Source: a virus | Taxonomy: Duplodnaviria; Caudoviricetes | Strand: one strand, 5' to 3' | Virus record (IMG/VR): IMGVR_UViG_3300021424_000043 | Location: 1 to 54,468 of that record | Length of the DNA stretch: 54,468 nt | Shown here: one piece after another, positions 11,017 to 38,285 of the stretch | Numbering within the stretch: position 1 is the first letter of the stretch | Layout of the letters: every line of letters starts with the position of its first letter | Program-made: the position numbers and the translations under genes | The notes under the pieces: generated by a model | The model's database searches: none | Told to the model about the DNA's origin: nothing | The model's input: the letters and a program-made list of their open reading frames with translations, nothing else

Positions 11017-11372
11017 CTTACAACATTTCTTGCTACAGGAAATACCGGAACAGGTTCAGTACTTATGCCATATAAGTTTGTTTTGGGTCTAAATGAATTA
11101 AGATAGAATATTAATGTTTGGTTTATAGTTACTTCATCTGTTTTTAAAGATTGCATTTGTTCTAATAATTCGATAGCAGGTATGCCCGACTCTGTAGAAA
11201 CTCTAAATAAAAATGCCGTATATTGTTCTGCTTGATTTTCAGTTGTGCATACAGAAATAAAAAAACTACGAACTAAATCAAATTCAGCAGTAGGAACTAT
11301 AACATCTGTCTTATAAAAACTATCAAATATTTGTGTAGTTTGATCTTGTTGATTTTTAGAAATATATGGCAT
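11013..11372 (-). CDS. Late hypothetical protein, possibly baseplate-associated
   Basis: 119-aa ORF, late promoter at 11391-11398, ATGA overlap with the gp4-like gene. Confidence 0.55.
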   Translation of the reverse strand: MPYISKNQQDQTTQIFDSFYKTDVIVPTAEFDLVRSFFISVCTTENQAEQYTAFLFRVSTESGIPAIELLEQMQSLKTDEVTINQTLIFYLNSFRPKTNLYGISTEPVPVFPVARNVVR

Positions 11373-11389
11373 ACTATGAACCGCTTTAG

Positions 11390-11449
11390 CTATTTATCAA
11401 TAGAAAAATGGGGTCATCGGTATATACATAAAATTTAAATTAACCGCCC
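11390..11449. repeat. Copy 1 of a ~60-bp duplicated intergenic element containing a late promoter (copy 2 at ~12883-12943)
   Basis: ctatttatcaatagaaaaatggggtcatcggtatatacataaaatttaaattaaccgcc versus ctatttatcaatagaaaaaatggggttatccttatatactaaaaattaaaattaactgcc. Confidence 0.85.
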
Positions 11450-12861
11450 CTACCTCTGGGGGCATTATTATCAACAACAGGAGTGCCTTTGTCTGATTGT
11501 TTGCCGTCTGGCGTTTCTGCTTTCTTTCTTAAGTCAATACCCGTTACATCCTTAATTGTGCCACCTACTGCCCCACCAACATTGGTAAATCCGCCTAATA
11601 CTTGTTTGCCTAAGGTTTTAATACCATTAATTATTGGATTTCCTTGTCTAATATCAACTTTGTTTTCTTCACCACCATAGACTGTTCCTGTAGTCGGAGC
11701 TCCTGCAGCCAGTGCATCAGTTGCTTGGCTAGCTTTGTTATCGAATGTAAAAGATAAATTTCTAGTTTCGTTTGGTTTTGCACGTAAATTGTTTAATAGT
11801 GAGTTCTTTAATTCTGTTTTTAGCGTTTGTTTTATATCAGTGTTCTTTAATGTTTTATACGCTGCACCTGCTGCTCTAATTGCACCTAGTGGATTGTCGC
11901 CTGCGCCCTTTAATGCCCCGCCGACGCTATCAATTAATCCGTCCTTACCAAGTATCTTTCCAGTTGACCCAGGCATAGCAATAGGACTTTTTGTTCTATC
12001 ATAATTTGCTACATCGCCAAAGCCAGGAACAAGATTACTAGGCTTATCTCCGTCTATTGCACCCTCATTATATACTACTGTTTCATAATCAAGTGTCATA
12101 ATATTTTTCATAACACCTGCAGCTTCATCATAGGCATAGGTGTCATGTGCAAATTCTGTTATGGTTGGGTTTATTAAAGTGTAGGCTATAAAGTTTTTTT
12201 GATAAAATCCATATATAGTTATTTCACTAAAGAAATTAGGTTTTTTAGGCGCGCTATCATTTATTGGATTATATCCATAGAAAAGTTTTCCTGACAAATC
12301 ATTTTCATAAATGTTTCTATTTTTAAAATCAGGATCTTGCACAGGCGCTGCTGTTTTACTACCTGCACCTGCCAACCCTCTTACTTCTCCTGTTTGTGTG
12401 TTTTTACTTAGGTCTTGACCGAAACCGCCGCGTGTACCACTAAATGAAACTTTAGGTACAGCACCATCATAATAATAATATGTATAATATGCAGCCCACA
12501 ATTTATTCATACTGTTGCCGTTATCGTCGAAAAAAGTAAACTGTACTGGATTATATTTTATTTTTGTTTGTACAATACGTTTACGATTGTATTGATTCAT
12601 TTGATGAGTAGCAAATTGATAACTAGGCAATTTTACATCACGCACTAATAGACCAAAATTTTGTTGTGTACCAAGGTTTGCATCTAAGTCATAAACTATT
12701 GAGTTTACATTAAAATAACAATGAAATAGAAATTTATTTTTAGGGGCGTTTTGATATGCATAAGGCCCGAACGTTTTACTTGCGTGGCGATAATCTCGCA
12801 GATAATCATTGCCGAAAAATCCGCTGCCTACGTCTTTAAGTAAATTTTGAAAAACACCCAT
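11440..12861 (-). CDS. Tail tube-like/baseplate tail-tube initiator (gp48/gp54-like), 473 aa
   Basis: PKNKFLF...VRDVKLPSY......NQYNRK...YNPVQFTFFDD...MTLDYE pattern of the gp19 fold; adjacent to the tube gene. Confidence 0.65.
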   Translation of the reverse strand: MGVFQNLLKDVGSGFFGNDYLRDYRHASKTFGPYAYQNAPKNKFLFHCYFNVNSIVYDLDANLGTQQNFGLLVRDVKLPSYQFATHQMNQYNRKRIVQTKIKYNPVQFTFFDDNGNSMNKLWAAYYTYYYYDGAVPKVSFSGTRGGFGQDLSKNTQTGEVRGLAGAGSKTAAPVQDPDFKNRNIYENDLSGKLFYGYNPINDSAPKKPNFFSEITIYGFYQKNFIAYTLINPTITEFAHDTYAYDEAAGVMKNIMTLDYETVVYNEGAIDGDKPSNLVPGFGDVANYDRTKSPIAMPGSTGKILGKDGLIDSVGGALKGAGDNPLGAIRAAGAAYKTLKNTDIKQTLKTELKNSLLNNLRAKPNETRNLSFTFDNKASQATDALAAGAPTTGTVYGGEENKVDIRQGNPIINGIKTLGKQVLGGFTNVGGAVGGTIKDVTGIDLRKKAETPDGKQSDKGTPVVDNNAPRGRGG

Positions 12862-12919
12862 ATAAGGTAAACCCCATTTAAACTATTTATCAATAGAAAA
12901 AATGGGGTTATCCTTATAT
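12860..12919 (-). promoter_or_regulatory. RBS-occluding hairpin with late promoter GATAAATA (12884-12891) in its loop
   Basis: Arms 12860-12879 and 12900-12919 are complementary at 18 of 20 positions and cover the SD and the AU of the start codon. Confidence 0.8.
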
Positions 12920-12933
12920 ACTAAAAATTAAAA

Positions 12934-13572
12934 TTAACTGCCGCCGCCAATACCAGTAACTGATGCTCCTGCTAAACTTCTTCCGATAGCCTGACCAACT
13001 CCACTAGTTAGTGGTGATTGTATAGCATTATCATAACGTAATGTTAATGCAATTTGTGCAGGTTCATTAGTGTTATAGTCTAAGTTGTTATAGTTTGCTG
13101 TTTGAATAAAGCAACCATAAATTTCCCAAGTTTCAAGAACGTTTGGTTTGTTTGCTCCATTTCCACCATCTAATACTTCAATATTAGTTTGGAACTTATA
13201 ATCTTGACCAGTTGCAGCACTTGACATTTCTACGAAATCTAATTGTTTCTGTAATTGTTGTCCTACTGCTTTTGATACACTACCTGATGCATCATCACGC
13301 AATGAAACATTTATTGGCTGCCATGCGTATCTACCTGCAAGATATAAAGTTGAGTTATAAATTGGGATAGTGATTTCAGGAAACTGAACTTGTGGTCGTG
13401 ATACGTTCATTACTTGCTTTGTTAATTGTAGACCGCTGGACGTGTCAACACCAAAGTTAATGAAGTTTACTCTAAAGCGAAATTGTAGTTTAGGCATCAA
13501 CAGGCCCTGATTGCCTCCGGCATTATCAGATGCTACTGTCATGTTAAACAATGATTGTGAGGCTGTTGCCAT
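12934..13572 (-). CDS. Tail tube protein (gp19-like)
   Basis: PKLQFRFRV...RPQVQF.E......YLAGR..WQPI.VSLRDD...YKF...IEVLDG...ETWEIYGCF...LDY.....I.LTLRYDNA; directly downstream of the sheath. Confidence 0.88.
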   Translation of the reverse strand: MATASQSLFNMTVASDNAGGNQGLLMPKLQFRFRVNFINFGVDTSSGLQLTKQVMNVSRPQVQFPEITIPIYNSTLYLAGRYAWQPINVSLRDDASGSVSKAVGQQLQKQLDFVEMSSAATGQDYKFQTNIEVLDGGNGANKPNVLETWEIYGCFIQTANYNNLDYNTNEPAQIALTLRYDNAIQSPLTSGVGQAIGRSLAGASVTGIGGGS

Positions 13573-13593
13573 TTTAATTCTCCGTATATACTA

Positions 13594-13627
13594 TATTTAG
13601 TCAGTGTGCGCCACTTGCATGGCGCAC
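13594..13627 (-). promoter_or_regulatory. Stem-loop (gtgcgcca/tggcgcac) followed by late promoter ACTAAATA, between sheath and tube
   Basis: 8-bp GC-rich stem at 13606-13627 with no U-tract; promoter at 13594-13601. Confidence 0.6.
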
Positions 13628-13638
13628 TGTTATTTCAA

Positions 13639-16600
13639 TTATGCTCCTGACAATTCACCAGTGTTCAATATACGTACTGGGATGTAGATAAATTCTGCTG
13701 CCTTGACTGGTTCAAGAGCAACGTCGATCCACAATTCATTACGATCTATTCTTGCTGGAGTATTGTTTGATTCATCGCAGACTACCAAGTAGTCATAGAT
13801 ACCTCTCTTAGCAACAAGATCAATCATTAGTGATTCTACTACTCCAGCGATTTGTTGACGAGTCAACGCATCGTTAGGTTCGAATACGAATGGTCTTGCT
13901 GCGATAGTCAATTGACGACGTACATAAGCGACCAAACGTGCTACGTTTGTACGATCAAGTGCGCTTTGACTATTAAATGATGTCTTATTACCATAGTTCA
14001 ATAAGCCATTACCAGTAAAGAATACTAGTGGGTTTATGAAGTTAGTATACAATACATTACGTATGCCTAGTGGTGTCTTACTAACCACGAACTCTCCTGT
14101 GTCACGATCTAAGTAACCGATACCTGTAGCGTTGTCAATCAGACCACGACGAGTACCAGCAGCCGCTAACCAAGGAAATGCAACTGTATCATTTTTAATA
14201 AATGTACGCAACATCATATGACTTGCTGGGACAGCAACTATATTACCGCTCAAGTCTGGAGCGACACCGCTTGGATAGAACAAGCCAAGATAAGTATCGC
14301 GTGTTACACAACCTGTTTCACCAGTGCCTGTAGCACCAGCAGCATTAGTTGCCCATGCTTGAATATCTGTTGCACTTTCTGCTAGACCCATTGGAGTGTC
14401 ACCCAAGATATAACCTGTCTGCCCACGATCATTGTTTAATACGACCATGTTTGGTTGTAGTTCAGGATAATTAGGTGTTGCCATTAAGTTGAAGAAGTTA
14501 TCTTCATCGCGTAGTGATTGATTTGTGTCCATTGTCGAACGCATAGCCTTTACAACCATGTTGCGCTGTGCCTTGCGTCCCATATACGCCTTACCTTTAT
14601 CATCTAATCCACTCGCTGAAACCCATGTTGAAGAAATTGTTGGGTATGTTGATTTGTCTGGGAAATTAGTTGAAGTCAAGTAATTTGTGCGATACTGCTT
14701 AACATTATATCCTGAGCGGCGTGTGTTGAACAACAGTATACCAGTTGGATATAAATTTGAGTTAGGAGCATCAACATCAAGATAATTGGCGTTGACAGTA
14801 GCCGTGCTTTTCAACATTGATTTAATAGTTGGGATAGGATCATCTGCTGGGTTAGTTGTGCCGTTAAGTGCCCAACGCGCATCTGCAAACAATACTCCTG
14901 TTGCACTTGTTTGATCATTTGTATCTAACAATACCCAAGTACCTGTTTCTGGTGCTACATATGTACCATTGCTATTTCTCTTTGCTTGCCAACGATAGAT
15001 TACTGGGAAGTTTTCTAAGTCGCTAGTATCAATCCATAGATCACCATAACTTAATGCAGTAGTACCATCACTTTGTGTTGTTGGTGCGCTTGCTGCCATA
15101 ATTGGGCCATTTGGATCAGTTGTATTTGTTCCAGTAGTTTTTGGGAAACCATTCTTATCGTATGCTTGGTTACGATATGCCTTCCAGTATGCACCAGTTG
15201 TTGCATCTGCTGTTTGGCATCTAACCATAATATCTGCTTGGTCAGCAACAGCCCAGAACCAATTAGTTCTATCTGGCGGGGCAACATTTGGGAAACCTTC
15301 GTTTGGTTCGTAGTCCACATAATACCAGTTACTTAACATAGTAGTGAACATAGTTGGAGCAACACTTGCTGTTGATCCTGCTAACGCAACTGCTGTGACG
15401 GCTCCGCCGCTTACTGCTGTAATCTTTATGTTTACGTCATTAGTTGTAGCAGCGCCGCCAATTAATGTGCCTAATACTTTTACAGTATCGCCAGCAGCAT
15501 AGCCTGAGCCTGCATTACCAAAAGTATCTCTATCAACTGTTACATAACCATATTGAGTCGATAAATTAACAGTTAGACCTGTACCTGATGATGAGATATT
15601 AGTTGTTGCAAATGCAGTATCAGAAATTGCTACTGATGGTCCCCACTTACAGCCATCTGTAGTACCTGATACTAAACCTGCCTCGTCTAGTACACCGATT
15701 GACGCATAGTTTGTACCAGTATTTTCATTGATAACAATTTCACCGCCTTCTGTGTGAGTTATTACGATTGCGCCATCACTGTTTACAGCTGCCGTAGTGT
15801 AACTAATATTTGCTGCACTCCATGCTGTTGCAAACTGTGCTGCATTACTGCTAGCAGCAATAGTAACTTCCCAAGGTTCAGAAGTTAATGGATTATTTTG
15901 AAACGCTGTTTCGCCAGGAGCACTTACTTGAACTTTTAATGTACCACCTGAACTAAATTCTGGGCTAGTGTTGCTGCCTGTAACAACAGTTGGCCCTATA
16001 GAATTACGCTTCCAAATATATACTGGAGATTGATCATATGCTCCATACGGATCGACCTGCATATATACGCTACCTGCTGGAATATTCTTACCACCAAGAG
16101 TATCTACTGCATTAGTGGCTAGCATGTCACTTTGGAATACGTTACAAGTACGTGATCTCCAAGTAGCAAGTGTTGAATCAAAACTACTAACTTTTGGATT
16201 TAATCCATTAGTTACAGTTGAGATTTTAATCCATACTGAATTAGTTGGAGCAGGTGTTGTTCCTGCAACTGCTGGAAGACTGCCCTGCCACAATGGCTGC
16301 TGCGCTGACGTACCAAAGAACATTTGTGGTTGATAGTAATCACCTGCAGTTATACCTAGTGATGATAATGCTGTACCGCCCAATGTCCATTTTGTTGCAC
16401 TGGAAGTTGGGTCATCGTCAATTAGGCTACGACCAAATATGTTAAGTACATTATTGGTTGAACTTGCAGCAATATCTTGTATTGCTAATGTATTATTAAT
16501 TTGACCAACAAGTGAACTTAGTGTAGTTCCAGTCGCAGTAACAGTATATGTTACTCCGCTATTAGTAAATGTTACTGTATCGCCAATAGTAATAGTTGGG

Positions 16601-17307
16601 CTAGTAGTACTTCCCGAAACCATTGGGATAGAACTTAGCCAATCGAAACTACCTACTTCGACCCAAGAATTCAAATAATTCTTATAATAATAAGTAGCCT
16701 TTTCTGTTACTGGATTGCCTTCTTTGGCTTCATAATCAACTATAGCAAAATCGCCTATTGCGCCAATGCTTGCAGCAGGGGCACCTGAAGATGTATCCTC
16801 TTCGTCAGTGATTATTGCTACAGGTGACTTATAATAATATGATTGTTTTTCGTTGCTCCAACAATAGATACCCCAAGTTGTTGTAGTTGTATCTAACCAG
16901 TATGTGCCATCTGCTGGATTTGCAGTTGGGCGTCCTGTTCTACCTACTAGACTTGCTAGATCAATATCTGCCCTTAATATATAAGCATTGTTTGTTACAC
17001 CCAATACTGAGTACGCTGCTAATAGACCATACTCATTTAATTCATACCCTTGAATTGGAGTACCGTCAGCAGTCTGATAGAAGAATGGATTACCATATAG
17101 TGTAACCAAATCTCTCTGACTAGTGACTTGAAATAATTTACCTGCATTTGCAGTTGTTGTTGCTTGCGCAATACCTACGCCTGCTGGGTTAGCCTTATTT
17201 GCTGCTGTAGCAACCATTACGAATGGTACACTTCCGCCTGCTGCGGGTAGATATTGTGACTGGTCGATAATTGTAACTTCGACGCCTGGTGATGTTAAAG
17301 CTGGCAT
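13639..17307 (-). CDS. Tail sheath protein (gp18-like) with a large central insertion, 1222 aa
   Basis: N-terminal LTSPGVEVTIIDQS; C-terminal FPWLAAAG..RG, LY...INP, YGNKT, ALDRTNVARL, FVFEPND, VVCDESNNTP..IDRNEL..D....PVKAAEFI. Confidence 0.95.
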   Translation of the reverse strand: MPALTSPGVEVTIIDQSQYLPAAGGSVPFVMVATAANKANPAGVGIAQATTTANAGKLFQVTSQRDLVTLYGNPFFYQTADGTPIQGYELNEYGLLAAYSVLGVTNNAYILRADIDLASLVGRTGRPTANPADGTYWLDTTTTTWGIYCWSNEKQSYYYKSPVAIITDEEDTSSGAPAASIGAIGDFAIVDYEAKEGNPVTEKATYYYKNYLNSWVEVGSFDWLSSIPMVSGSTTSPTITIGDTVTFTNSGVTYTVTATGTTLSSLVGQINNTLAIQDIAASSTNNVLNIFGRSLIDDDPTSSATKWTLGGTALSSLGITAGDYYQPQMFFGTSAQQPLWQGSLPAVAGTTPAPTNSVWIKISTVTNGLNPKVSSFDSTLATWRSRTCNVFQSDMLATNAVDTLGGKNIPAGSVYMQVDPYGAYDQSPVYIWKRNSIGPTVVTGSNTSPEFSSGGTLKVQVSAPGETAFQNNPLTSEPWEVTIAASSNAAQFATAWSAANISYTTAAVNSDGAIVITHTEGGEIVINENTGTNYASIGVLDEAGLVSGTTDGCKWGPSVAISDTAFATTNISSSGTGLTVNLSTQYGYVTVDRDTFGNAGSGYAAGDTVKVLGTLIGGAATTNDVNIKITAVSGGAVTAVALAGSTASVAPTMFTTMLSNWYYVDYEPNEGFPNVAPPDRTNWFWAVADQADIMVRCQTADATTGAYWKAYRNQAYDKNGFPKTTGTNTTDPNGPIMAASAPTTQSDGTTALSYGDLWIDTSDLENFPVIYRWQAKRNSNGTYVAPETGTWVLLDTNDQTSATGVLFADARWALNGTTNPADDPIPTIKSMLKSTATVNANYLDVDAPNSNLYPTGILLFNTRRSGYNVKQYRTNYLTSTNFPDKSTYPTISSTWVSASGLDDKGKAYMGRKAQRNMVVKAMRSTMDTNQSLRDEDNFFNLMATPNYPELQPNMVVLNNDRGQTGYILGDTPMGLAESATDIQAWATNAAGATGTGETGCVTRDTYLGLFYPSGVAPDLSGNIVAVPASHMMLRTFIKNDTVAFPWLAAAGTRRGLIDNATGIGYLDRDTGEFVVSKTPLGIRNVLYTNFINPLVFFTGNGLLNYGNKTSFNSQSALDRTNVARLVAYVRRQLTIAARPFVFEPNDALTRQQIAGVVESLMIDLVAKRGIYDYLVVCDESNNTPARIDRNELWIDVALEPVKAAEFIYIPVRILNTGELSGA

Positions 17308-17364
17308 TTTTCTGTTTCCTATGTTGTAATATTTTGAGGGTTACATACCCTGGTTTCTTAATAA

Positions 17365-17426
17365 TATTTATTAATTAATAGGAAAAACTGCCCAATAGCA
17401 AACCTTCGAAGGTTTTTTGTTAAATA
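17365..17426. promoter_or_regulatory. Divergent late promoters (AATAAATA minus 17365-17372; GTTAAATA plus 17419-17426) flanking a perfect 16-bp palindrome AAACCTTCGAAGGTTT (17400-17415)
   Basis: Read directly from the sequence. Confidence 0.6.
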
Positions 17427-17431
17427 AGTTT

Positions 17432-17785
17432 ATGATTAAAATAAGACCTATTTGTACTGTTTGTAATAAGAATTATAGTGCTATTAACTATATAAAGGAT
17501 AATATTAAGCATTATCGCAGTCATTGTGATGATTGCGGCAAAAAGAAAATTAAAGCAAAAAAAAGATTATTTAATTGGGAAAAGGCTGGTTATAAAAAGA
17601 AACTAGTATGTGATAATTGTGGTTTTAAATCAATATATCCTAGTCAAATGACTGTATTTCACATTGATGGAAATTTAAAAAACATTAAACTTGTAAATCT
17701 AAGGACTATTTGTTTAAATTGTGTAGAAATTGTTAAGCGAAAAGAATTGTCCTGGAAGCGCGGCGATTTACAGATTGATTATTGA
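17432..17785 (+). CDS. Zn-ribbon plus HNH-like protein, possibly degenerate
   Basis: CxxC pairs and VFHIDGNLKN...NLRTICLNC; ATG at 17432 preferred over the ORF-track TTG at 17417. Confidence 0.7.
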   Translation: MIKIRPICTVCNKNYSAINYIKDNIKHYRSHCDDCGKKKIKAKKRLFNWEKAGYKKKLVCDNCGFKSIYPSQMTVFHIDGNLKNIKLVNLRTICLNCVEIVKRKELSWKRGDLQIDY

Positions 17786-18400: not shown

Positions 18401-18481
18401 ATACTAATTTCCATAATACTATTATATAAGGCTTGATTACAAAAATCTAGCGTTATTTTTACCAATATTTAATAACCAAGA

Positions 18482-19783
18482 CTATATAGCACTTCCAGCC
18501 TTTCTATCTATCGCCTTATCAGTTGAAGCGACCAAATATAGGAACTTTTTTAAATCAGATTGAAAATAGCATCTATCAGAGACATAATTTACACATCTAT
18601 TGTAGTTATGTTGTAAAATAGGCTCCATTTCGTTTAATATTACTTGCCATTGTTTAGCATTTAAACTGGTCAATCTTTTAACTTCCATTGCTATTTTTTC
18701 CATTCTTTTAATGTCGTTTACTTCTTGATCATAACTTTCATCAAACCATTTGGAGAAGGTAAGAAATCCCATGTCTTTTATATATTCTAATGTATAGGGT
18801 CTAGCAAAAGTAATAAAGGGATGTTTTGCCAATATAGATTTAATTTCCTTTTCATTAATAGATACTGAACGTTCCTGTTCTTCTAAAGCCCATGTGCCGA
18901 TAATTAAACTGAAATATGTTTGTTGACAAAACTCTATAGGAAATGACGTATACCCTACATGATTAGTAATAAAATCATTTGTATCTACTGTTAATGGAAA
19001 CTTATGTTTAATTTTTTCAAATCCTATACGTAATCTTTCGTCTCTATCCAATTCGCAGCACCTTACATTAGGAGTGGTGCCTAAACTTACGTATCCATAT
19101 TGTAAAAGATCATAGTAAGATAATAATGATACCATCATTATTCTATGCTCTCTAGGCATTCTATTCAAACAAAGATAAGTTTTAATTTTAGGTTTAGTTC
19201 TGTCGTAATCATATAATGGGAATTCAAGTTTGTTAAACGTATTGAATAAGTGTGGCGAATATATAGTTAAAATTTTATCTTTAATATTTTGTTCATTTGC
19301 AAAACTTTCATAGTGTTCATTTAGTTTATAGGCATTACATACATAGATTACTTTATGAGCAGGTAACTGTGTATTTTTTAAAAGCTGATGTGTTTTTTCA
19401 AAAAAACATCTAGTGTGACTTTCCCAACTATTGTTAATTACAAGATAAGCACATCCTTCTATCAATTCTTTCTTAACATCATCATTTATACTGTCTAAAA
19501 TATTCCCATCAAATTCACTGTAATTCCACCAATTTAGACTAACATCAACAATCCATGGTAATTTTTTATCTATTTCCTCAAAATGTAACAAATCAACTTG
19601 TATGCCTATCTGTAAAAAATTTTCCTTGATTATTTTATAATAGCAGGGAGCATGTAAATTTGCCTTATTACTATGTTTAAAATTTTGTTTGCCTGGCCAC
19701 TTAATCTTGTCTAAATCGCTAGGTGTATCTTTTAGAAATCCCCTTTCAGATGAAAGAATTTGAAATTTCATAAAATCATGCAA
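18482..19783 (-). CDS. Putative glycosyltransferase-like (GT-B) protein
   Basis: YLCLNR.PR.HR, INEK..K.I...HPFI, L.YIKDMGF.TF..WFDESYD motifs, typical of GT-like genes in large phages; start uncertain. Confidence 0.5.
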   Translation of the reverse strand: MHDFMKFQILSSERGFLKDTPSDLDKIKWPGKQNFKHSNKANLHAPCYYKIIKENFLQIGIQVDLLHFEEIDKKLPWIVDVSLNWWNYSEFDGNILDSINDDVKKELIEGCAYLVINNSWESHTRCFFEKTHQLLKNTQLPAHKVIYVCNAYKLNEHYESFANEQNIKDKILTIYSPHLFNTFNKLEFPLYDYDRTKPKIKTYLCLNRMPREHRIMMVSLLSYYDLLQYGYVSLGTTPNVRCCELDRDERLRIGFEKIKHKFPLTVDTNDFITNHVGYTSFPIEFCQQTYFSLIIGTWALEEQERSVSINEKEIKSILAKHPFITFARPYTLEYIKDMGFLTFSKWFDESYDQEVNDIKRMEKIAMEVKRLTSLNAKQWQVILNEMEPILQHNYNRCVNYVSDRCYFQSDLKKFLYLVASTDKAIDRKAGSAI

Positions 19784-19809
19784 CTAAAAACTACTAAGTG
19801 CTGTAATCT

Positions 19810-20595
19810 TTAACCTTGAATCCAAGTTAGAGGCTGACTATAATCTACATACTTACGCAACTCATCCATTAAACGATTCATCTCTTCTTTACTTTCATTT
19901 TTCATTGCAGTACCATTCAAAGTTGTGCCACCACCGGGTCCGGCAATACTACCATATTTTTCACGGGCTTCGCCAATTATACCTTTAAGCACTGCCAAAA
20001 TCATATTACCTATCCAAACGCCTGCGCCGGGATCTAGTAATAATTCTAATTCTGGTCGCTGAACATCTGCCCAAATAAGTACACGCTCACCTGTACCTTT
20101 AAAGTCACGTACCATTTTCAACACTTTTGTTACTGGATTAAATGTGTATGTAACATAGCCACCGAACATACGTGCTGCTAATTCAACATAGCCTGCATAA
20201 AAGTCGTATGTAGCCATACCACCTGTGTAGTTATAGTTTAATAGATAAGTGTTTAATATAGCACTTGAAAATGGATCAAAACTTGTGCTACTTGGTCCTG
20301 TTTCAAGACCTACTGTTCTACGAAATATTGCACGTACATTTATAAATTCTGCAGGAAGAGTATAGGTATCAATATTTTTAATAATTGTAAGTAAAGTATA
20401 AGACTCTATATTAGCATTTTGTGCTGCCTGACGATATAATTTAATAGTGTAGTTATATGCAGCCTCATAGTGTTGCGGATCTAATTCTAGATCAATTATA
20501 TCACCACCTAAACGCAAGCGTAGATTATTGAATAAACCTTGTTTTGCTTCTTCTAAAGTAGCATTTGTAGGTGTTGCTAGTGGATCGTTAGCCAT
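19810..20595 (-). CDS. Neck protein (T4 gp13-like head-tail adaptor)
   Basis: LRLGG.IIDLELD..H; YTLP; GEAREKY..IAGPGGGTTLNG..MK.E..E...L motifs. Confidence 0.85.
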   Translation of the reverse strand: MANDPLATPTNATLEEAKQGLFNNLRLRLGGDIIDLELDPQHYEAAYNYTIKLYRQAAQNANIESYTLLTIIKNIDTYTLPAEFINVRAIFRRTVGLETGPSSTSFDPFSSAILNTYLLNYNYTGGMATYDFYAGYVELAARMFGGYVTYTFNPVTKVLKMVRDFKGTGERVLIWADVQRPELELLLDPGAGVWIGNMILAVLKGIIGEAREKYGSIAGPGGGTTLNGTAMKNESKEEMNRLMDELRKYVDYSQPLTWIQG

Positions 20596-20634
20596 AAAAC
20601 TTCCCGATAATAAACTATTTATCGGAAGTTTATG
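20593..20634 (-). promoter_or_regulatory. Hairpin covering the SD and AUG of the neck gene, overlapping late promoter GATAAATA (20616-20623)
   Basis: cataaaacttcccgataa / ttatcggaagtttatg: 16 pairs with two 1-nt bulges. Confidence 0.8.
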
Positions 20635-20640
20635 TATAAG

Positions 20641-21396
20641 TTAAACTATATCTGATGCTTGATATTGTATAAAATTGTGTGATATGAGATATGGTAAAAT
20701 ATACTCAAATGCAAGACTTGTATGTGCTGTGGTATCATAATGTCCAGCAGCGGGTCCTGTCTTTACTCTTTCAATCTTTTTCTCATGGAAAAAACCTTCA
20801 GCAGTTCCTGGTATAAAATTCAAGTTATTATACACAGTAGCATAATTGTTTTCTTTCATAATTTTTTCTATATCATCACACCAACTAAAGAAAACAATTG
20901 GAATACCATACATTCTAGCCAAATTTTCCATGGCGCAAATGGTATGTACAATTTTATGATATAAATTATATTCGCTTGTAATTATGTGATTAATAATCAA
21001 ATCGTCAACATCACTATGATATGATTTATTAAGATGTCTTTTAAGGTTTTCTAAATTACTAGTATGATTGAAAGTATAATAAGTTACGTTATTAACATTA
21101 TGAGTGCCTGTAAGGTCTTTGTCTGATGATATAGGTTCATAAAAATTAAAACTTTCAGAATTTAGTCCCAAAGTTAATCTGCCGGCGCTTGTTAACTGAA
21201 CTATTACTAAATCTAATTTATTGTTTACTAGTAGTTGATTTAATTTTGTTACATTCATTTCGTTCCCAGCACCTGCACTATATGCCATTTTTAGTTCACA
21301 ATTCAATTTTTGTGAAAGCATAATAGGCCAGGGTGTACCAGCATAATAACTACTATGGGAACAGCCTAAACTTGCAAATGTAAATTTTGTTTGCAC
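20641..21396 (-). CDS. SGNH/GDSL hydrolase-like protein
   Basis: LGCSHS (block I), AGAGNE (block II), C-terminal GHY....H. Confidence 0.6.
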   Translation of the reverse strand: MQTKFTFASLGCSHSSYYAGTPWPIMLSQKLNCELKMAYSAGAGNEMNVTKLNQLLVNNKLDLVIVQLTSAGRLTLGLNSESFNFYEPISSDKDLTGTHNVNNVTYYTFNHTSNLENLKRHLNKSYHSDVDDLIINHIITSEYNLYHKIVHTICAMENLARMYGIPIVFFSWCDDIEKIMKENNYATVYNNLNFIPGTAEGFFHEKKIERVKTGPAAGHYDTTAHTSLAFEYILPYLISHNFIQYQASDIV

Positions 21397-21852: not shown

Positions 21853-22049
21853 ACTAAATCCTTAAACATCGTTTTACGTCCACTCTCGCCTAATGTATAG
21901 TCAAAAATTTCTCTTGTGCGTTGCAGCATAGCACACGCTAGCATCAAGTGATCGTTACGATCATTGGTAGATAGTATAGCTGTATCTATAATTTGCATTA
22001 GTGTTCCCATTCTTGATTTGATAGGATCAAATTCATATTTATTATCCAT
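21849..22049 (-). CDS. Hypothetical protein
   Basis: 66-aa ORF overlapping both neighbours at start and stop. Confidence 0.65.
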   Translation of the reverse strand: MDNKYEFDPIKSRMGTLMQIIDTAILSTNDRNDHLMLACAMLQRTREIFDYTLGESGRKTMFKDLV

Positions 22050-23179
22050 TAGAATGCCCTCAATATAATCATGTTAGCATTAAAGCGACCATTAGGCTTT
22101 GCTGCTACTGCCTTAATGCTATCAAAGAATTTACGCGCAGCAGGCTTGCTACCCATAATAACTTTAATTTGCTCTTCAGGCTTGCGTAGAGTTTTGATCT
22201 GCGATTCCTTAGTACAGAAACCAATCAGAGTATTACTCTTGACACTAAGACTTTTGGTATACTCATCAGCAACATAATGATGCAGTTTACGCTTCTTAGT
22301 ATCGTATACCCATGCCTCACTACAGCCATGCAGTTTAGTTGGGCTAATACTTGTAAGTTCTAATTTTTCAAGTTTGAGAGATTTGAGATACTTCAAACGT
22401 CTGACAATTTTCTCAACAGGCACTGTCTTTTTAGCACGGGGCTTCTTGCCTGCTTTCTTCATACCAACATATGCGTTAAGATCGGCAATTACAGTCTCAA
22501 TACTGCCTATGATGTTACGTAACTGAATCTTACCGAAACGCTCATACGCCTCGTTTAACTGTTCATCTTTACCCGATGCAACTTCGTTGTACTCATCAAG
22601 TTTAGTTTGCCAGGCTTCAATAAGAATAGGAACGTGCTGCGGTAATATGTTGCTTTGTGACAACACTTCAATTGCCTTGATACCATCTTTACCAGCACCA
22701 TTTTTTATATACTCGTCCCACAAGCCTTCAAGTTCGCCGCCAAGATTCAGAGTACGCTCACGCATGATCTCCTGCACATTGGGGCGATTACCCACAACAG
22801 GAACGTCTGTAGTGTCATCGGGCTGAGTGAGTGACACAAGACGATCAATCTCAGATTGCAACTTAGACAGAGTATCATTATCTACTACGCTGCCCCTGAC
22901 AATGCATCGTGCAAGCCAACCATAAGTGGGCTTGACATGACGATCATTGACGCGGCGTAGCGTTTTCGCAACTTGTTGCTTGCCCACAACATCTAGATAT
23001 TGGGCAAGAAATTCCTTAGCGTCCTTATTATCATAAAAGTGATTATACCAATTAAATGCTTTGGCGAGTTCCCACGTAGTGCTAACCGCTGCATAGTCGA
23101 ATGTGGGTTCGGGCCCAATGTACTTTGCGTCAGTGTCGCGTGGGTGCAACTCTTTAATTTCTGATTTTGACTTAACCAT
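22049..23179 (-). CDS. Early hypothetical protein, 376 aa
   Basis: Strong sigma70 promoter and ACGGAG SD; basic C-terminal half ending KTLRKPEE...GRFN..MIILR. Confidence 0.75.
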   Translation of the reverse strand: MVKSKSEIKELHPRDTDAKYIGPEPTFDYAAVSTTWELAKAFNWYNHFYDNKDAKEFLAQYLDVVGKQQVAKTLRRVNDRHVKPTYGWLARCIVRGSVVDNDTLSKLQSEIDRLVSLTQPDDTTDVPVVGNRPNVQEIMRERTLNLGGELEGLWDEYIKNGAGKDGIKAIEVLSQSNILPQHVPILIEAWQTKLDEYNEVASGKDEQLNEAYERFGKIQLRNIIGSIETVIADLNAYVGMKKAGKKPRAKKTVPVEKIVRRLKYLKSLKLEKLELTSISPTKLHGCSEAWVYDTKKRKLHHYVADEYTKSLSVKSNTLIGFCTKESQIKTLRKPEEQIKVIMGSKPAARKFFDSIKAVAAKPNGRFNANMIILRAF

Positions 23180-23211: not shown

Positions 23212-23260
23212 ATTATAAAGCCTTATTTAAATAGAGTCAAGTCTATGTAAGCCATTGATT
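23212..23260 (-). promoter_or_regulatory. Sigma70 promoter TTGACT-17-TATAAT with upstream IHF-consensus box AATCAATGGCTTA
   Basis: -10 at 23212-23217, -35 at 23235-23240, WATCAANNNNTTR match at 23248-23260. Confidence 0.8.
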
Positions 23261-27164: not shown

Positions 27165-28172
27165 TCAAGCCTTATTAATACTTACTAATGGATAAGGCAT
27201 ACCATTATCAGCGTTAGCCACAGCAGCAGTATTGAATGTACCGAATGCTGGTGAACTATTGTTAATATTTGCTGCATCATTTGGCAATGCTGTCTCGCCA
27301 GAAGTTGCTGTAAATATTTCAAGAGTATGATCACTTAGGCTTTGTACTAGAGTAGTGTCTGCGTTAGCATATGTTGCAATGATTGACATAGTGTTTGGTA
27401 ACAACGCTGTGTTTGCTAGGTTCGCTGTATAGCACGCACCTACTAATCCAGATGTTGATCCTTTTACCAAATACTTCTGTTTGCCTTTTTGACGCACGAT
27501 GAATCCCGCTTCATTGTCAGCATATGCAAAACTTCCGCCTGATACAGCGACCGCCGCATTAGCGGTTAATTCAAGCTCGTCAGCAGCAGTAATACTATCT
27601 ACATAGCCAATCAAATCTCCATCACTATTGGCTAATACTGAACCTGCTGATAGTTGAGTATCAAATACAGTGCTACTGCCTGTTACAGTAGTGCTATTTG
27701 TAGCTGCTGTTAAAGTCCCTGTACCTGACTGGCCAACTGCAACGCGACATAGAACTTGATTACCAAATATTGCAGTATTACCCCCAACTACACCAAATGT
27801 TGCTGTGTTAGTTGCTGGATACCCTTCGCCGCTGATTGGATTGTTGAAATATGCATCAACAACGCCAACTGTTAGGGCTACAGATTGTGCTGCTGTAGTT
27901 GAAAGATCAACTTTCTCAGAAGTTGGATTTGCAGAAAGTGTAGTTGCAGACACAGTAAATGTACTGTTAGCACCTGCGTTAATTACCTCTAGAATAAAAT
28001 ATGTAGTACCTGCTACTAAACCACCTACGCTGCTTGCTGGAATGAATGGCATGCCTGCAATAATGCCTAGAGTAGTAAAGTTTGCTGAAGTAGTTACGAT
28101 ATCTGTTGCCGCTGCTGTTGCTGTTAATGTAACCACAGCCTGGGCTTTTGCGATTTTTAGTGGACGACCCAT
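27165..28172 (-). CDS. Virion structural protein, 335 aa
   Basis: A/T/G-rich; GFIVRQKGKQKYLV motif; strong AGGAG SD; own late promoter at 28255-28262. Confidence 0.6.
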   Translation of the reverse strand: MGRPLKIAKAQAVVTLTATAAATDIVTTSANFTTLGIIAGMPFIPASSVGGLVAGTTYFILEVINAGANSTFTVSATTLSANPTSEKVDLSTTAAQSVALTVGVVDAYFNNPISGEGYPATNTATFGVVGGNTAIFGNQVLCRVAVGQSGTGTLTAATNSTTVTGSSTVFDTQLSAGSVLANSDGDLIGYVDSITAADELELTANAAVAVSGGSFAYADNEAGFIVRQKGKQKYLVKGSTSGLVGACYTANLANTALLPNTMSIIATYANADTTLVQSLSDHTLEIFTATSGETALPNDAANINNSSPAFGTFNTAAVANADNGMPYPLVSINKA

Positions 28173-28190
28173 TGTTTTTCTCCTATAATT

Positions 28191-28559: not shown

Positions 28560-28572
28560 AATATTATTTATC

Positions 28573-34208
<5,636 letters not shown>

Positions 34209-34212
34209 GGGA

Positions 34213-34905
34213 CTAATGAACGAAACTTGAATAATACTGTTCTAGTCGTTTAAACCAACATTCTGTCCATTGATCGAACTCAATGCCTTCTATAATAAAC
34301 TCTTGATATTGATTATCAGCACTACACATAAAGATAACACCCTTACGTATTTTAGTGCCATAGACTTCATTATGCGCATTTGCATAGGCTGCTAACTGTA
34401 TAAAATAATCTTCAATCCATTCGCGCTTTTTCGGCTTATTAGTTTGTTTGTGATCCATAATAGCATCACTATTTTGATGTACCCCTACAAGATCAGTAGT
34501 TCCTGCATAGACTTCAGGATAATATAAACTTACTTCTGTACCCCAATATTCCTGACATTTGCATAGTCCTTTTTCTATTATAGTTTTAGCCATATTATGG
34601 CTTTGTATACTATAAGGATTAGTGCCTGGATTGCCCGCTTCTCCAGTCTTTATATGATTCTCTAACCATTTATGCATACGTGTGCCACGACCAGCAGCCT
34701 CAGTAGTAATCTGTTTAGCTTTTTCTTCGCCTACACGTTTACGCCATTCTTGTAATGCTTTTTTCTTTTCCTCTGGCTTAGTAGCATCTAGTATTGTGGT
34801 GACACTGGGTACTGCAAATCCGTCTGGGGTCACATATTTCCTTGACCCATCTATAGTTTGCTTTTTTAATTCAGCATAAGGATATTTTGTTGGGATATAT
34901 ATCAA
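34213..34905 (-). CDS. PD-(D/E)XK exonuclease (RecB/lambda-exo-like)
   Basis: PSVTTIL, RGTRMH, E..LY...YAGTTDLVG, IMDHKQ, YFIQLAAYA. Confidence 0.85.
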   Translation of the reverse strand: MIYIPTKYPYAELKKQTIDGSRKYVTPDGFAVPSVTTILDATKPEEKKKALQEWRKRVGEEKAKQITTEAAGRGTRMHKWLENHIKTGEAGNPGTNPYSIQSHNMAKTIIEKGLCKCQEYWGTEVSLYYPEVYAGTTDLVGVHQNSDAIMDHKQTNKPKKREWIEDYFIQLAAYANAHNEVYGTKIRKGVIFMCSADNQYQEFIIEGIEFDQWTECWFKRLEQYYSSFVH

Positions 34906-35222
34906 ACAGTAAAACTCTCGCCGCAGCCGCAGCGTCCACTTTCATTAGGATTAATAAATTCAAATTTTTCATTTAATCCCTGTCTAATATAATCAACTGT
35001 CATACCTTCAAGATGCTTATATGCATCTTTTGTGACCCAAACATAAACATCATCATGTATGCTTAAAAAATCTTCTGATTTCCATTCATCAGCAAATTCA
35101 ATTTTATAGGCATAACCACTGCATCCTGTTTTAGTTATACCCAATCTTATTCCTAATCCTTTGCCGCGATCTTTTAATTGTTCTTTAAATCTAGTTTTAG
35201 CATTACTGGTTAATGTTATCAT
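34902..35222 (-). CDS. iscA: A-type Fe-S cluster carrier (IscA/SufA/HesB family)
   Basis: MITLT..A; IRLG....GCSGYAY; F.NPN....CGCGESF. Confidence 0.93.
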   Translation of the reverse strand: MITLTSNAKTRFKEQLKDRGKGLGIRLGITKTGCSGYAYKIEFADEWKSEDFLSIHDDVYVWVTKDAYKHLEGMTVDYIRQGLNEKFEFINPNESGRCGCGESFTV

Positions 35223-35228
35223 ATCTAT

Positions 35229-35256
35229 ATTATAATATAAAGCAACCTAAAGTCAA
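35229..35256 (-). promoter_or_regulatory. Sigma70-like promoter TTGACT-16-TATAAT, ATG 6 nt downstream
   Basis: Near-consensus hexamers in the intergenic gap. Confidence 0.65.
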
Positions 35257-35264
35257 GTAATAGA

Positions 35265-35624
35265 TTATTTGTTTAGTGCTTTTTTAGCCATTTTACTTAC
35301 TGTGTCTTTACTACTTTCGCTTGACTGAGGTTCAGGAGGTGGTTGCTCTTTATTTCCTCTAAACACTACCTCACCATTTTGAATATTTAATATACTTTTC
35401 TTAAATGGGTTTTTATCACTAGAAACCATTTTTAAAACATCTTTTTCAGTAAGTGTATAGTTTGAATCGCTTTGCTGTAAATAATTATTAATCCATTTAG
35501 TAAGTTGATATAATGACCAATTAGATTTTAGTTGTTGTTGATTACGCAAATCTTCAAGACGGCCAGCTGCAACTAAAATCGCATTAACCTCATCATTTTG
35601 ATTTTCAAACTCAAAGAGATACAT
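35265..35624 (-). CDS. Late hypothetical protein
   Basis: 119-aa ORF ending VSKMAKKAL. Confidence 0.6.
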   Translation of the reverse strand: MYLFEFENQNDEVNAILVAAGRLEDLRNQQQLKSNWSLYQLTKWINNYLQQSDSNYTLTEKDVLKMVSSDKNPFKKSILNIQNGEVVFRGNKEQPPPEPQSSESSKDTVSKMAKKALNK

Positions 35625-35627
35625 TTA

Positions 35628-36296: not shown

Positions 36297-36340
36297 GGTA
36301 TTACATCCTATAGTGTATTTATCATCCAAATAAAAAATTA

Positions 36341-36784
36341 TTAATGAGTTGTGTATTCTTTAAATGTCTTGTTCTGCCAATATTTACTATATTCAACGTA
36401 AAGATTCATGGCTTTTTGTGCAGTTTTACGTCTAATTTTATCTTCAGATAGTTTGGCTAAATGCACATATCTATTCTCAATATTTCTATCAACAAGTCGT
36501 TTATGATTAGTAATAGTAGCACTTAAACTATCCAATGTTTCATCTAGTTCTACGATTTTATTTAAATCTTTATGCTTATTATTTTTATGAAATACACACC
36601 AAGTCACTGCATATTTAAGTTGTCCAAACTTTATAATGATAGTCGGATCTTTTATCCATTGTACAGTATATAGTCCTTTGGAGTCTTTCGTTATTTGATA
36701 TTGTCCAAAAAGGTGGTAACTGCCATCATCTTGTTTAAGGACTAGTAAGTCTTTAATCTTTTTTGATAAATCAATATGATTCAT
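36341..36784 (-). CDS. Hypothetical protein
   Basis: 147-aa ORF in an operon. Confidence 0.6.
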   Translation of the reverse strand: MNHIDLSKKIKDLLVLKQDDGSYHLFGQYQITKDSKGLYTVQWIKDPTIIIKFGQLKYAVTWCVFHKNNKHKDLNKIVELDETLDSLSATITNHKRLVDRNIENRYVHLAKLSEDKIRRKTAQKAMNLYVEYSKYWQNKTFKEYTTH

Positions 36785-36785
36785 A

Positions 36786-37205
36786 TTAATATTTAATAAA
36801 ATGTATATTTTTTATAGGTTTTTCTATGCTTAAGTAAGGTTTTAATCTTAAATCTTCTGTACCACATATAAGCATAGGCACAGTTTTTACATCCTCCTTA
36901 AGATATGCTAATTCATCGTTGCCATCACTAAACACTGCGATACTACGTATCTCAAAATCAAACATCCAACAACTTGTAACATCCATATCAAAATAATTTA
37001 CTGAAATATCAATATATTTCGGCACAGATATATTTTCAGGCTGACTACGCAAAGATATAGATTGTATTATAGTATCAAAGTTTATTTGTGTGTTACGTTT
37101 ATGAACCCAGTCTTTATAATCTATACCCTCAGGCGGTTTAGCCCTATTAGGAATTCCAGTCTGCGTAATATCAAACAGTGTATAACAAGCAATTTTATCG
37201 CTCAT
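36786..37205 (-). CDS. Hypothetical protein
   Basis: 139-aa ORF, YTLFDITQTG...RN.Q.NF.TIIQ.ISLRSQP; TAAATA 4 nt upstream of the ATG. Confidence 0.65.
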   Translation of the reverse strand: MSDKIACYTLFDITQTGIPNRAKPPEGIDYKDWVHKRNTQINFDTIIQSISLRSQPENISVPKYIDISVNYFDMDVTSCWMFDFEIRSIAVFSDGNDELAYLKEDVKTVPMLICGTEDLRLKPYLSIEKPIKNIHFIKY

Positions 37206-37222
37206 CCTCTATTTACAAACAT

Positions 37223-37253
37223 AAAAAAGCCCGGGAATTTTAGTTCCCGGGCT
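37223..37253 (-). terminator. Rho-independent terminator
   Basis: 10-bp stem agcccgggaa/ttcccgggct followed by a U-tract. Confidence 0.9.
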
Positions 37254-37279
37254 CTATGTCGCATAACTTTAACTAATTA

Positions 37280-37648
37280 TTAGTTAGTGAAAGTTGCTGA
37301 GGCTGCTACTGTTACTGCTGCTGGGGCAACTGCGTCTACTGCTGTTTTTAGAGTAGCTGCTGTATATGCTCCAGTTGGATACAATGCTAGTGCGATTGTG
37401 TCGTTAGCTGCATCAGTATATTCATAAATCATAACTGTTGAAATCTGTTGAACAGTTTGCATGATTGTGTTTACTTCTGTACCAGTCAATGCGCCGTCTG
37501 CTGTGATTGTGAAAAAATCAAGCTTTGGGCCTTGTGGCTGTACAGTAAGTGCTGAACTGACTGCGTTTACACCTGAATTTGTGTATGAGTTTGCATCTAA
37601 GTGAAATACTGGTTTTAAGTCGCCAGAGACTCTAGTGAATTGTGCCAT
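37280..37648 (-). CDS. Small, probably abundant virion protein (decoration-like)
   Basis: A/T-rich 122 aa; monocistronic, with late promoter ACTAAATA (37693-37700), GGAG SD and its own terminator. Confidence 0.55.
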   Translation of the reverse strand: MAQFTRVSGDLKPVFHLDANSYTNSGVNAVSSALTVQPQGPKLDFFTITADGALTGTEVNTIMQTVQQISTVMIYEYTDAANDTIALALYPTGAYTAATLKTAVDAVAPAAVTVAASATFTN

Positions 37649-37740
37649 TTTTTAAATCTCCATGTTGTTTGACCTTCAAAGAGGTCTACTATTATTTAGT
37701 CCATTTACTAAAATACATGGATTTGGACAGACTTTTTAAC

Positions 37741-37989
37741 TTATTCTTGTGTACCTAAAGCCTGTCTTATTTGTGCTTTTTGTTGCTGTGGTAGATTTTT
37801 AACAATATTAATAAGTTTGTCAACTTTCTGTATACGTGGTGTTTGAGAGGTAACTGCTGGACTTGTAGACGCAGAAGGTTGAGTTGAAGTTTTTGCTGCT
37901 GTTTTCTTTAAACCAGCTGCTGTTTTTAGTGAGGTTGGACTTACTTCATCCAACTCTTTACTTTCATTAATAATTTCATGCATTCTCAT
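37741..37989 (-). CDS. Small late protein, possible internal head protein
   Basis: N-terminus MRMHEIINE; late promoter 5 nt upstream. Confidence 0.5.
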   Translation of the reverse strand: MRMHEIINESKELDEVSPTSLKTAAGLKKTAAKTSTQPSASTSPAVTSQTPRIQKVDKLINIVKNLPQQQKAQIRQALGTQE

Positions 37990-37993
37990 ATTA

Positions 37994-38245
37994 TTATTTA
38001 TCTATTTGTTTGTTTTTTTTAACAGATTTTGCGAATCGACTAGGCTCTCTATTTTTAATAGAACTTAGTAACTTCTTTTCAAATAATTCTGCTGTTTCGG
38101 TATTATAGTGGCGCTCCATTAATTTAATTAAATTAATAGCACTAGTAATAATATTAGTGCCGCGACTTTCGACAATATGTGGAATATCACGGTTTAAAGA
38201 TATGGAGTCTAATTCCTCTAAGAGGCTTTTAGTTCTTTTTTGCAT
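37994..38245 (-). CDS. Late hypothetical protein
   Basis: 83-aa ORF with late promoter at 38262-38269. Confidence 0.65.
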   Translation of the reverse strand: MQKRTKSLLEELDSISLNRDIPHIVESRGTNIITSAINLIKLMERHYNTETAELFEKKLLSSIKNREPSRFAKSVKKNKQIDK

Positions 38246-38285
38246 ATAGATACCTTTCTAATATTTATCTTGTAAAGGTGTCTAT
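38246..38285 (-). promoter_or_regulatory. SD-occluding hairpin enclosing late promoter GATAAATA, at the helicase/late-gene junction
   Basis: atagataccttt / aaaggtgtctat, 11 of 12 complementary. Confidence 0.75.

Follow-up and report, generated by a model that had tools for sequence, protein, structure and literature searches.

Hairpins Around Late Promoters as Putative Translational Locks in a Jumbo T4-Like Phage from Lake Water

Introduction

The stretch of DNA considered here, IMG/VR record IMGVR_UViG_3300021424_000043, is a contig that makes up the whole record (54,468 bp; hereafter, the window) and comes from an uncultured jumbo T4-like myophage; the elements in question are six inverted repeats which lie, each together with a TAAATA-type box, around the starts of six of its genes. 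The open reading frames (ORFs) are nearly all on the minus strand of the window, and matches to PHROG families identify among them structural genes (for a tail sheath of 1222 amino acids (aa), two tube-type proteins, a head-closure protein, a head-tail adaptor and giant tail fibres) and genes of replication and metabolism (for a DnaB-like helicase, a primase, exonucleases, MazG, a deoxynucleoside monophosphate (dNMP) kinase, UvsX and UvsY). Over roughly half of its length the sheath protein shares about 45% identity with the sheaths of jumbo phages (PA5oct and Atu_ph07 among them); when the phage collection was searched for near-identical DNA, no close phage record came up, and the DNA of the window is present in lake-water metagenome runs only, no RNA run being listed for it. 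An earlier note on this DNA had proposed that the repeats act as translational locks, which silence late genes on read-through mRNA and leave them open on mRNA started at the late promoter; the evidence bearing on this proposal is the subject of the present paper.

Genome-wide controls were taken from a 333-kb relative (G001), estimated to be 92% complete, whose gene calls are crude (longest-ATG) and whose gene starts are approximate. It has a gene for a gp55-type late sigma factor (match to phrog_12791, E 3e-60); a gp55-like sigma factor was not found in the window, itself a genome fragment.

The Six Inverted Repeats

The six inverted repeats do exist at the places given in the earlier note, on the minus (coding) strand, and the note's pair counts were about right (16 pairs at the adaptor gene, 11 at the virion-protein gene, 9 + 10 pairs plus a 5-bp apical stem at the tube-like gene). 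The hairpin upstream of the head-tail adaptor gene (19810-20595) occupies 20597..20631; its 5' arm (20631-20619) overlaps the first bases of the box (20622-20616), its 3' arm (20610-20597) carries the Shine-Dalgarno (SD)-like GGGAAG, and its fold is worth -14.4 kcal. Upstream of the 1864-aa tail-fibre gene (28573-34167), the hairpin 34167..34197 joins TAGTTGT (34197-34191), whose first two bases are also the final two of the box (34202-34196), to ACAACTA (34173-34167), whose final base is the A of the AUG. The junction of the DnaB-like helicase gene (38282-39670) with the gene of an 83-aa virion protein (37994-38245) has the hairpin 38246..38285, with a 5' arm at 38285-38274, a 3' arm at 38257-38246 that extends from an SD-like AAAGG up to the AUG, and the box (38268-38262) in the loop (11 of 12 pairs; -9.7 kcal). 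The strongest of the six (-28.3 kcal) is found at 12859..12920, between the tail-tube gene (12934-13572) and the gene of a tube-like 473-aa protein (11440-12861); its outer arms are 12920-12912 and 12867-12859, the latter including the AUG, its inner arms are 12909-12900 and 12879-12870, and the box (12890-12884) sits in an apical 5-bp mini-hairpin. The remaining two are an 8-bp long-range pairing (17315..17385; box 17371-17365) upstream of the tail-sheath gene (13639-17307) and an imperfect repeat (11370..11423; box 11397-11391) upstream of the gene 11013-11372.

When the whole hairpins were compared with 200 dinucleotide shuffles, the z-scores were -4.7 at the tube-like gene, -3.8 at the adaptor gene, -3.2 at the virion-protein gene, -2.0 at 11013-11372, -1.5 at the fibre gene and -1.2 at the sheath gene. 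A second measure was the free energy needed to open the ribosome-binding site (RBS; here the stretch from -13 to +4 relative to the AUG), calculated for the long RNA and for the RNA beginning at the predicted late start, the null being obtained by shuffling only the flank 5' of the box. Among 17 late-promoter genes examined in this way only three are above the null: the tube-like gene (22.2 kcal in the long RNA, 6.0 in the late-start RNA, null 10.1; p 0.005), the adaptor gene (15.1, 5.1 and 8.1 kcal; p 0.01) and the virion-protein gene (10.3, 1.4 and 4.5 kcal; p 0.01); the fibre gene (p 0.14), the sheath gene (p 0.075) and 11013-11372 (p 0.65) are not.

Judged by these folds and by the relatives described below, four of the six repeats, those of the tube-like, adaptor, virion-protein and fibre genes, are more than chance matches. 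In the predicted folds of these four the 3' arm holds the SD sequence or the AUG, and late-promoter transcripts would lack the 5' arm because this lies upstream of, inside or directly after the box (upstream of or within it at the adaptor, virion-protein and tube-like genes, ending 5 nucleotides (nt) after it at the fibre gene). The earlier claim of at least six locked late genes, each with the SD and/or AUG under a 3' arm and the promoter in the loop or in or near the 5' arm, holds in both respects for these four; the sheath and 11013-11372 sites are weak against shuffles. Of the checks that the earlier note had suggested, folding long and late-start transcripts against shuffles speaks for the tube-like, adaptor and virion-protein sites and not for the other three, while covariation in relatives is found at the adaptor and fibre genes, is weak at the virion-protein gene, is lacking for the sheath pairing, and at the tube-like gene meets a hairpin that is mostly absent.

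The Late-Promoter Box and the Predicted Start

The proposal depends on the TAAATA box being a late promoter, and this part of it is borne out. ATAAATA is depleted in the window (21 occurrences where 36.6 would be expected); of these 21, the gene strand carries 19, and 13 are located no more than 70 nt upstream of the ORF starts used. Judging by this distribution, the motif is real and behaves as a T4-type late-promoter box. The full TATAAATA occurs only three times in the window, and the variants CTAAATA, GTAAATA and TTAAATA occupy the same position in four further genes.

In T4, according to the accessible part of PMC2988020, the 8-bp late box extends from -13 to -6, about one helical turn upstream of the start; with the first base of the box at -13, the predicted start is therefore the sixth base after the box. 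The distances from box to AUG are bimodal, with a sharp peak at -12/-11 and a broad hump from -23 to -35: in G001 there are 18 genes at -12, six at -11 and only seven across -13 to -22, and in the window three at -12 and three at -11. The peak at -12 is what a transcription start on the sixth base after the box would lead one to expect, and suggests such a start. At all four supported sites the box is 23-35 nt before the AUG, and the sixth-nucleotide rule places the predicted late starts (minus strand) at about 20610 for the adaptor, 34190 for the fibre (inside the 5' arm), 38256 for the virion protein and 12878 for the tube-like protein.

Conservation of the Hairpins in Relatives

For the adaptor gene, 80 related loci yielded 54 distinct leaders, including the window's own. 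The box is invariant among them, and the arms which flank it vary in sequence with pairing kept (CCGAT/ATCGG, CCCGAT/ATCGGG, CCTG/CAGG, CCAGAT/ATCTGG, TTGCCT/AGGTAA); at least seven pairs bridge the promoter in 50 of the 54, an SD-like motif occurs in 52, in 41 of which all of it is paired, and the hairpin persists as the genes upstream of it change. When the 5' and 3' halves were exchanged between relatives, the cost of opening the RBS fell from 9.88 kcal (cognate) to 6.05 kcal (swapped), and none of 5000 permutations was as high, a count which, like the other permutation counts given here, overstates significance because the sequences of the relatives are not independent samples. In a structure-blind MAFFT alignment, 72% of the cells of a named 11-pair helix are paired, and the cells in which both partners have changed number 40, where 26.4 would be expected (a total reached in none of 500 shuffles); shifting the helix by -1 gives a good score too, since some rows are out of register. 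A covariance-model alignment, which being fitted to a model leans towards the structure, gives 75.5% paired cells and 39 double-changed cells against 23.1 expected. RNAalifold predicted no pairs on the MAFFT alignment, because stem geometry and loop length vary, and was replaced by the count of the named structure, the covariance-model alignment, the arm-swap test and landmark-anchored counting. The predicted adaptor hairpin is conserved, with strong covariation, across environmental relatives.

The fibre gene was followed through its upstream exonuclease gene in 80 loci; with the window, 69 of 81 regions have a fibre start and a box, and these reduce to 39 distinct leaders, whose alignment was anchored on two structure-independent landmarks only, base 6 of the box and the first base of the AUG. 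Stem positions 1-9 pair in 28 to 39 of the 39 sequences, with several pair types at each, and 11 distinct compensatory arm pairs occur over positions 3-7. The mean length of the contiguous stem is 7.6 pairs (median 9), that obtained with permuted 3' arms 3.7 +/- 0.3 (0 of 5000 as high); at least seven contiguous pairs in the same register are found in 30 of the 39, and in all 39 the stem has its 3' end at the A of the AUG. The late-start RNA could retain only 0-4 of the stem pairs; opening the AUG would cost 8.6 kcal in the long RNA of the relatives and 1.9 in the late-start RNA, with a gap of at least 3 kcal in 31 of 39 (in the window, 7.9 and 1.9 kcal). The nine leaders lacking the stem belong mostly to the most distant loci, and in one leader (L255) a segment upstream of the box pairs with the AUG region instead. 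The candidate lock of the fibre gene is rescued by this comparison with relatives, despite its weak single-sequence score.

At the virion-protein gene, 80 loci gave 49 distinct leaders, of which 33 have the box at least 20 nt from the AUG; here the arm-swap test gives 4.15 kcal (cognate) against 3.57 kcal (swapped), with 74 of 5000 permutations as high. In many relatives the box is so near the AUG that the predicted RNA is leaderless or nearly so.

Repeats of another kind are found within the coding sequence of two tail-fibre genes, in which arrays with periods of 9 nt and 66 nt (6251-6495, 29858-30520, 31738-32265) correspond to collagen-like and other coding repeats common to the 613-aa and 1864-aa proteins; a scan for direct repeats was dominated by them and returned nothing on intergenic cassettes.

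A Probable Translational Lock on Read-Through RNA

Arms, stability, register to box and AUG, and covariation are observed features of these sites; what they probably amount to, in our reading, is a lock of the RBS on read-through RNA, with late-promoter RNA open, at the adaptor, fibre, virion-protein and tube-like genes. At each of them the SD and/or AUG is complementary to a segment upstream of, inside or at most five bases after the box. Transcripts entering from the upstream gene, whether read through from the putative sigma-70-type early promoters at 23240 and 35256 or from the helicase operon, would carry both arms, fold and be poorly translated; transcripts from the gene's own ATAAATA would begin some six bases beyond the box, without the 5' arm, and be open. 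Translation would be limited to late-promoter transcripts, and early and late genes could therefore sit head to tail on one strand. The logic of silent read-through and open late mRNA set out in the earlier note is supported by the geometry at four of its six sites and by the covariation at the adaptor and fibre genes; the sheath and 11013-11372 sites give it no such support.

With early and late labels assigned from gene function and promoter matches, a hairpin is found at all three places of the window where an early-type gene abuts a late gene of the same strand (after the helicase, the exonuclease and the MazG operon), and the two junctions interrupted by an opposite-strand gene have none. 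On the gene strand, the sigma-70-type matches that score highest (11 of 12 positions each) head the operons which read into the adaptor and the fibre: TTGACT-17-TATAAT at 23212..23240 (minus) precedes the operon from 23179 to 20641, which includes MazG, and TTGACT-16-TATAAT at 35229..35256 (minus) precedes the gene 34902-35222 and the exonuclease gene (34213-34905). A scan of the minus strand detected no terminator-like site between the first match and the adaptor gene other than the adaptor hairpin itself, and none between the second and 34167. Promoter-like matches as a whole are not clearly above shuffles (90 against 80.3, sd 8.9; 101 against 82.3, sd 8.3). The junctions listed by the earlier note were mostly right, namely helicase to virion protein, exonuclease to tail fibre and MazG operon to adaptor; its dNMP kinase gene does not abut the sheath gene, since the opposite-strand ORF 17432-17785 (plus), which has its own box 5 nt before its ATG, intervenes, and its "SGNH" assignment of 20641-21396 has no PHROG or Pfam support. 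Pfam likewise gave no family for 20641-21396, 22049-23179, 18482-19783, 11440-12861, 11013-11372, 19810-20595 and the small plus-strand ORF.

A different account of the same hairpins, which we regard as unlikely, is that they insulate at the level of RNA synthesis or stability, by terminating or pausing transcription or protecting the upstream 3' end, while the embedded late promoter restarts it and the cover of the SD and AUG is incidental. An intrinsic terminator (a G+C-rich stem followed by a U-tract) was considered and rejected for the conserved sites: a T-run follows the stem in only 1 of 54 adaptor relatives (1 of 52 by the definition of the terminator scan), and the fibre stem runs into coding sequence. 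A stabilizer of upstream 3' ends would have no need of a stem that ends precisely at the A of the AUG, as it does in every distinct fibre leader, and the SD is completely paired in 41 of 52 adaptor sequences. In its favour are the window's own adaptor copy, which was flagged as terminator-like in a simple window scan (9 pairs, tail AGTTTTAT), and the one other contig (L367) which has the tube-like cassette, where the G+C-rich inner stem is kept, the outer one is lost and ACTTTTTATG follows. So is a site of G001 described below, at which a box overlaps the 5' arm of a terminator (perfect stem plus T7) upstream of 276728.

It is at the tube-like gene that termination followed by restart is a real rival of the translational lock, because L367 keeps the inner stem and a T-rich tail and because the hairpin, strongest of the six, stands between two late tail-tube genes and not at an early-to-late junction, the upstream tube gene being itself late. 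None of the 12 distinct homologous tube junctions listed has a box or a hairpin.

That the repeats act on DNA, as the site of a dimeric regulator or as a cruciform controlling the late promoter, seems very improbable. The box is inside or beside the repeat at every site, and T4 I-TevI has a protein operator overlapping its late promoter (PMC2988022, in the part available), as such an account would have it. The arms, however, vary freely with complementarity kept (the 11 fibre arm pairs and the several adaptor stem types), which argues against sequence-specific recognition by a protein, and the 3' arm follows the SD or the AUG, not the promoter. Short stems (7-12 bp) with loops of 10-20 nt are, moreover, poor candidates for cruciform extrusion. 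The asymmetry between G-U and A-C pairs was considered as a discriminator of RNA from DNA, but wobble pairs are too few to decide (46 of 708 at the adaptor, 6 of 281 at the fibre).

Several points weigh against the translational lock itself. The few G-U pairs do not, taken by themselves, prove a structure at the level of RNA rather than DNA; the fibre hairpin taken alone is no better than its shuffles (z -1.5, p 0.14), the window's adaptor hairpin was itself flagged as terminator-like, and the tube-like one is absent from most relatives and lies between late genes. The virion-protein hairpin is weakly conserved, only 5 of 33 relatives being in the top 5%, and the permutation counts are inflated for the reason given above. 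A shuffle test restricted to the duplex, with the box excluded from the 5' flank, has low power and reached p <= 0.01 at 4 of 68 late promoters and 1 of 316 controls in the pooled set described in the next section. Finally, the late start site, the existence of the read-through RNA and the effect on translation are elements which we infer.

Two further observations concern this region. An upstream cassette of about 45 nt is common to two adjacent late genes, that of the tube-like protein and 11013-11372 (12884-12920 and 11391-11425: GTATATA..CCCCATTTTT..CTATTGATAAATAG), with the box in a small CTATT/AATAG stem, and looks like the product of a promoter-cassette duplication. An 8-bp G+C-rich hairpin (13606-13627; GTGCGCCA..TGGCGCAC) immediately precedes the CTAAATA box of the tail-tube gene; no clear T-run accompanies it on the coding strand, and the hairpin that G001 has in this position is a different one.

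Frequency of the Candidate Locks in the Window and in G001

The lock was scored as the number of RBS bases expected to pair with sequence ahead of the predicted start. The window and G001 together have 98 genes with a box 11-70 nt upstream, 68 of them with a leader of at least 20 nt; the controls were 316 box-free genes, each given three pseudo-offsets drawn from the real distribution (948 in all). The 95th percentile of the controls is exceeded by 12 of the 68 leadered late promoters and by 48 of the 948 controls (Fisher p 3e-4), and the 99th percentile by 6 of 68 and 10 of 948. The "general device" of the earlier note was an overstatement: on these scores the putative hairpin lock is a recurrent minority device.

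The two strongest candidate locks of G001 precede homing-endonuclease genes, one of them directly after the gp55-like gene; further top cases precede the adaptor gene, a tail-fibre gene following an exonuclease, a baseplate wedge gene and a gene following a deoxyribonucleotidase.

G001 (L190-L206) also contains a repeated cassette, composed of a late box, a GTAGTT...AACTAC hairpin and an SD sequence, before genes of about 200-250 aa with M-x-IY N-termini (for example 12558-13277, 20480-21247, 27311-27916, 74146-74706, 80899-81501 and 260594-261367); in several copies back-to-back boxes occur on both strands, about 15 nt apart. These genes may be mobile endonuclease genes. At 276650-276730 of G001 (L203:16650-16730), just upstream of a 122-aa gene (276728), a perfect 12-bp stem, with T7 after it, has a 5' arm that opens with the final bases of a late box; this would be a transcriptional analogue of the lock, in which RNA from upstream would terminate and late-start RNA would be without the arm.

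The Sheath and 11013-11372 Sites

Very probably the repeats at 17315-17385 and 11370-11423, and these only, have no part in locking, and are either matches that arose by chance in A+T-rich intergenic DNA or what is left of a promoter cassette that was duplicated. To their weak z-scores and unremarkable opening costs may be added that the 8-bp pairing of the sheath gene is not kept in relatives, where other elements replace it, and that the homologue of 11013-11372 in G001 (326592) has its box 5 nt from the AUG and no leader; the 5' half and box of the 11013-11372 site are, by eye, a near copy of the tube-like cassette. What speaks for a lock here is the score against natural controls, 12.0 of 16 and 11.2 of 18 RBS bases being paired before the start at the two sites, with the control 95th percentile at 11.8.

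The sheath relatives keep instead the palindrome ACCTTCGAAGGT, a T-run (often after a small G+C stem), the box and a leader of about 50 nt. Within this leader a hairpin (17337-17351; AGGGT..ACCCT) is conserved with compensatory variants (AGGTGG..ACCT, AGGCTT..AAGCCT) and leaves the SD free; it may be a 5' stabilizer or a translational element. The palindrome, perfect at 17403-17414, is flanked by two divergent late boxes, that of the sheath gene and that of ORF 17432-17785; since it is kept almost letter for letter in most sheath relatives, it suggests a protein-binding site and not an RNA stem.

Possible Leaderless Starts and Other Devices

Many late-type boxes, throughout G001 and at several places in the window (10568, 28559, 37989, 36784 and 37205 on the minus strand, and 17420-17434 on the plus strand), stand only 5 (or 4) nt ahead of the ATG, which is too close for an SD sequence to fit between them. 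A gap of 5 nt places the start given by the T4 rule on the A of the AUG, and under this rule the mRNAs would be leaderless. The box is less than 20 nt from the AUG in 30 of the 98 late-promoter genes, and the sharp 5-nt class suggests that leaderless late mRNAs are widespread in this T4-type transcription system. On read-through RNA such a gene would be represented by an internal AUG with no SD.

It is possible, and we put it forward only tentatively, that the position of the box decides translatability as well as transcription by means of three interchangeable cis devices: hairpin locks at genes whose leader carries an SD sequence, leaderless starts and promoter-embedded terminators. The junction of helicase and virion-protein genes, at which some relatives have a hairpin and others a start that is nearly leaderless, would be an example. 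If this were true, nearly every late gene would be silent on read-through RNA, and early and late genes could be freely mixed on one strand.

Comparison with T4 and Significance

The precedent which the earlier note had drawn from T4 is borne out: as listed in the accessible text of a review (PMC3014915), the genes e, soc, 49 and I-TevI have inhibitory structures at the translation initiation region. Gene e, as presented there, resembles the present cases in being a late gene below earlier transcription, with the SD or the AUG sequestered in the long transcripts, and similar e leaders are kept by related T4-type phages. The differences are that the genes concerned here are an adaptor, a tail fibre and a small virion protein of a distant lake-water jumbo lineage, that the 5' arm of the fibre hairpin lies between box and start site with the stem ending exactly on the AUG, and that a 100-fold effect was measured for e, whereas the present cases are predictions from sequence. 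For soc and 49 the likeness, that of late genes embedded in early regions with inhibitory initiation-region structures, rests on the listing in that review.

The same logic is described, in the part of PMC2988022 available, for I-TevI, I-TevII, I-TevIII, segB and mobE of Aeh1, all late genes on long early or middle transcripts, with an RBS hairpin and a late promoter so placed that the late RNA cannot fold. The two strongest locks of G001 precede genes of this same class; these endonucleases are free-standing, one of them following the gp55-like gene, and the window has no such endonuclease site. An intrinsic terminator combined with a late promoter, as found in the window upstream of 6993, 37205 and 50126, also insulates a late gene, and differs in that its stem is wholly upstream of the box and followed by a T-run, with the RBS untouched. 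In the sources retrieved by a literature search, so far as their text was available, there was no description of such locks from jumbo phages, nor of leaderless late transcripts associated with this box; PMC5312081, to judge by its accessible part, concerns another phage type. The present cases fit, by analogy, the mechanism of T4 e, soc, 49 and I-TevI, which would here operate in a distant lineage and at new genes, the homing endonucleases of G001 included.

On this reading, the T4-style silencing of late genes on early read-through RNA would not be peculiar to a few genes of T-even phages; selection would maintain the locks at structural genes across many uncultured jumbo phages of lake water, as the dozens of compensatory variants at two junctions suggest. 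For annotators, this would supply a rule, applicable to sequence without other data, for predicting late starts and which AUGs are gated, and the two conserved hairpins, those of the adaptor and the fibre, are ready test cases for reporter or toeprint assays.

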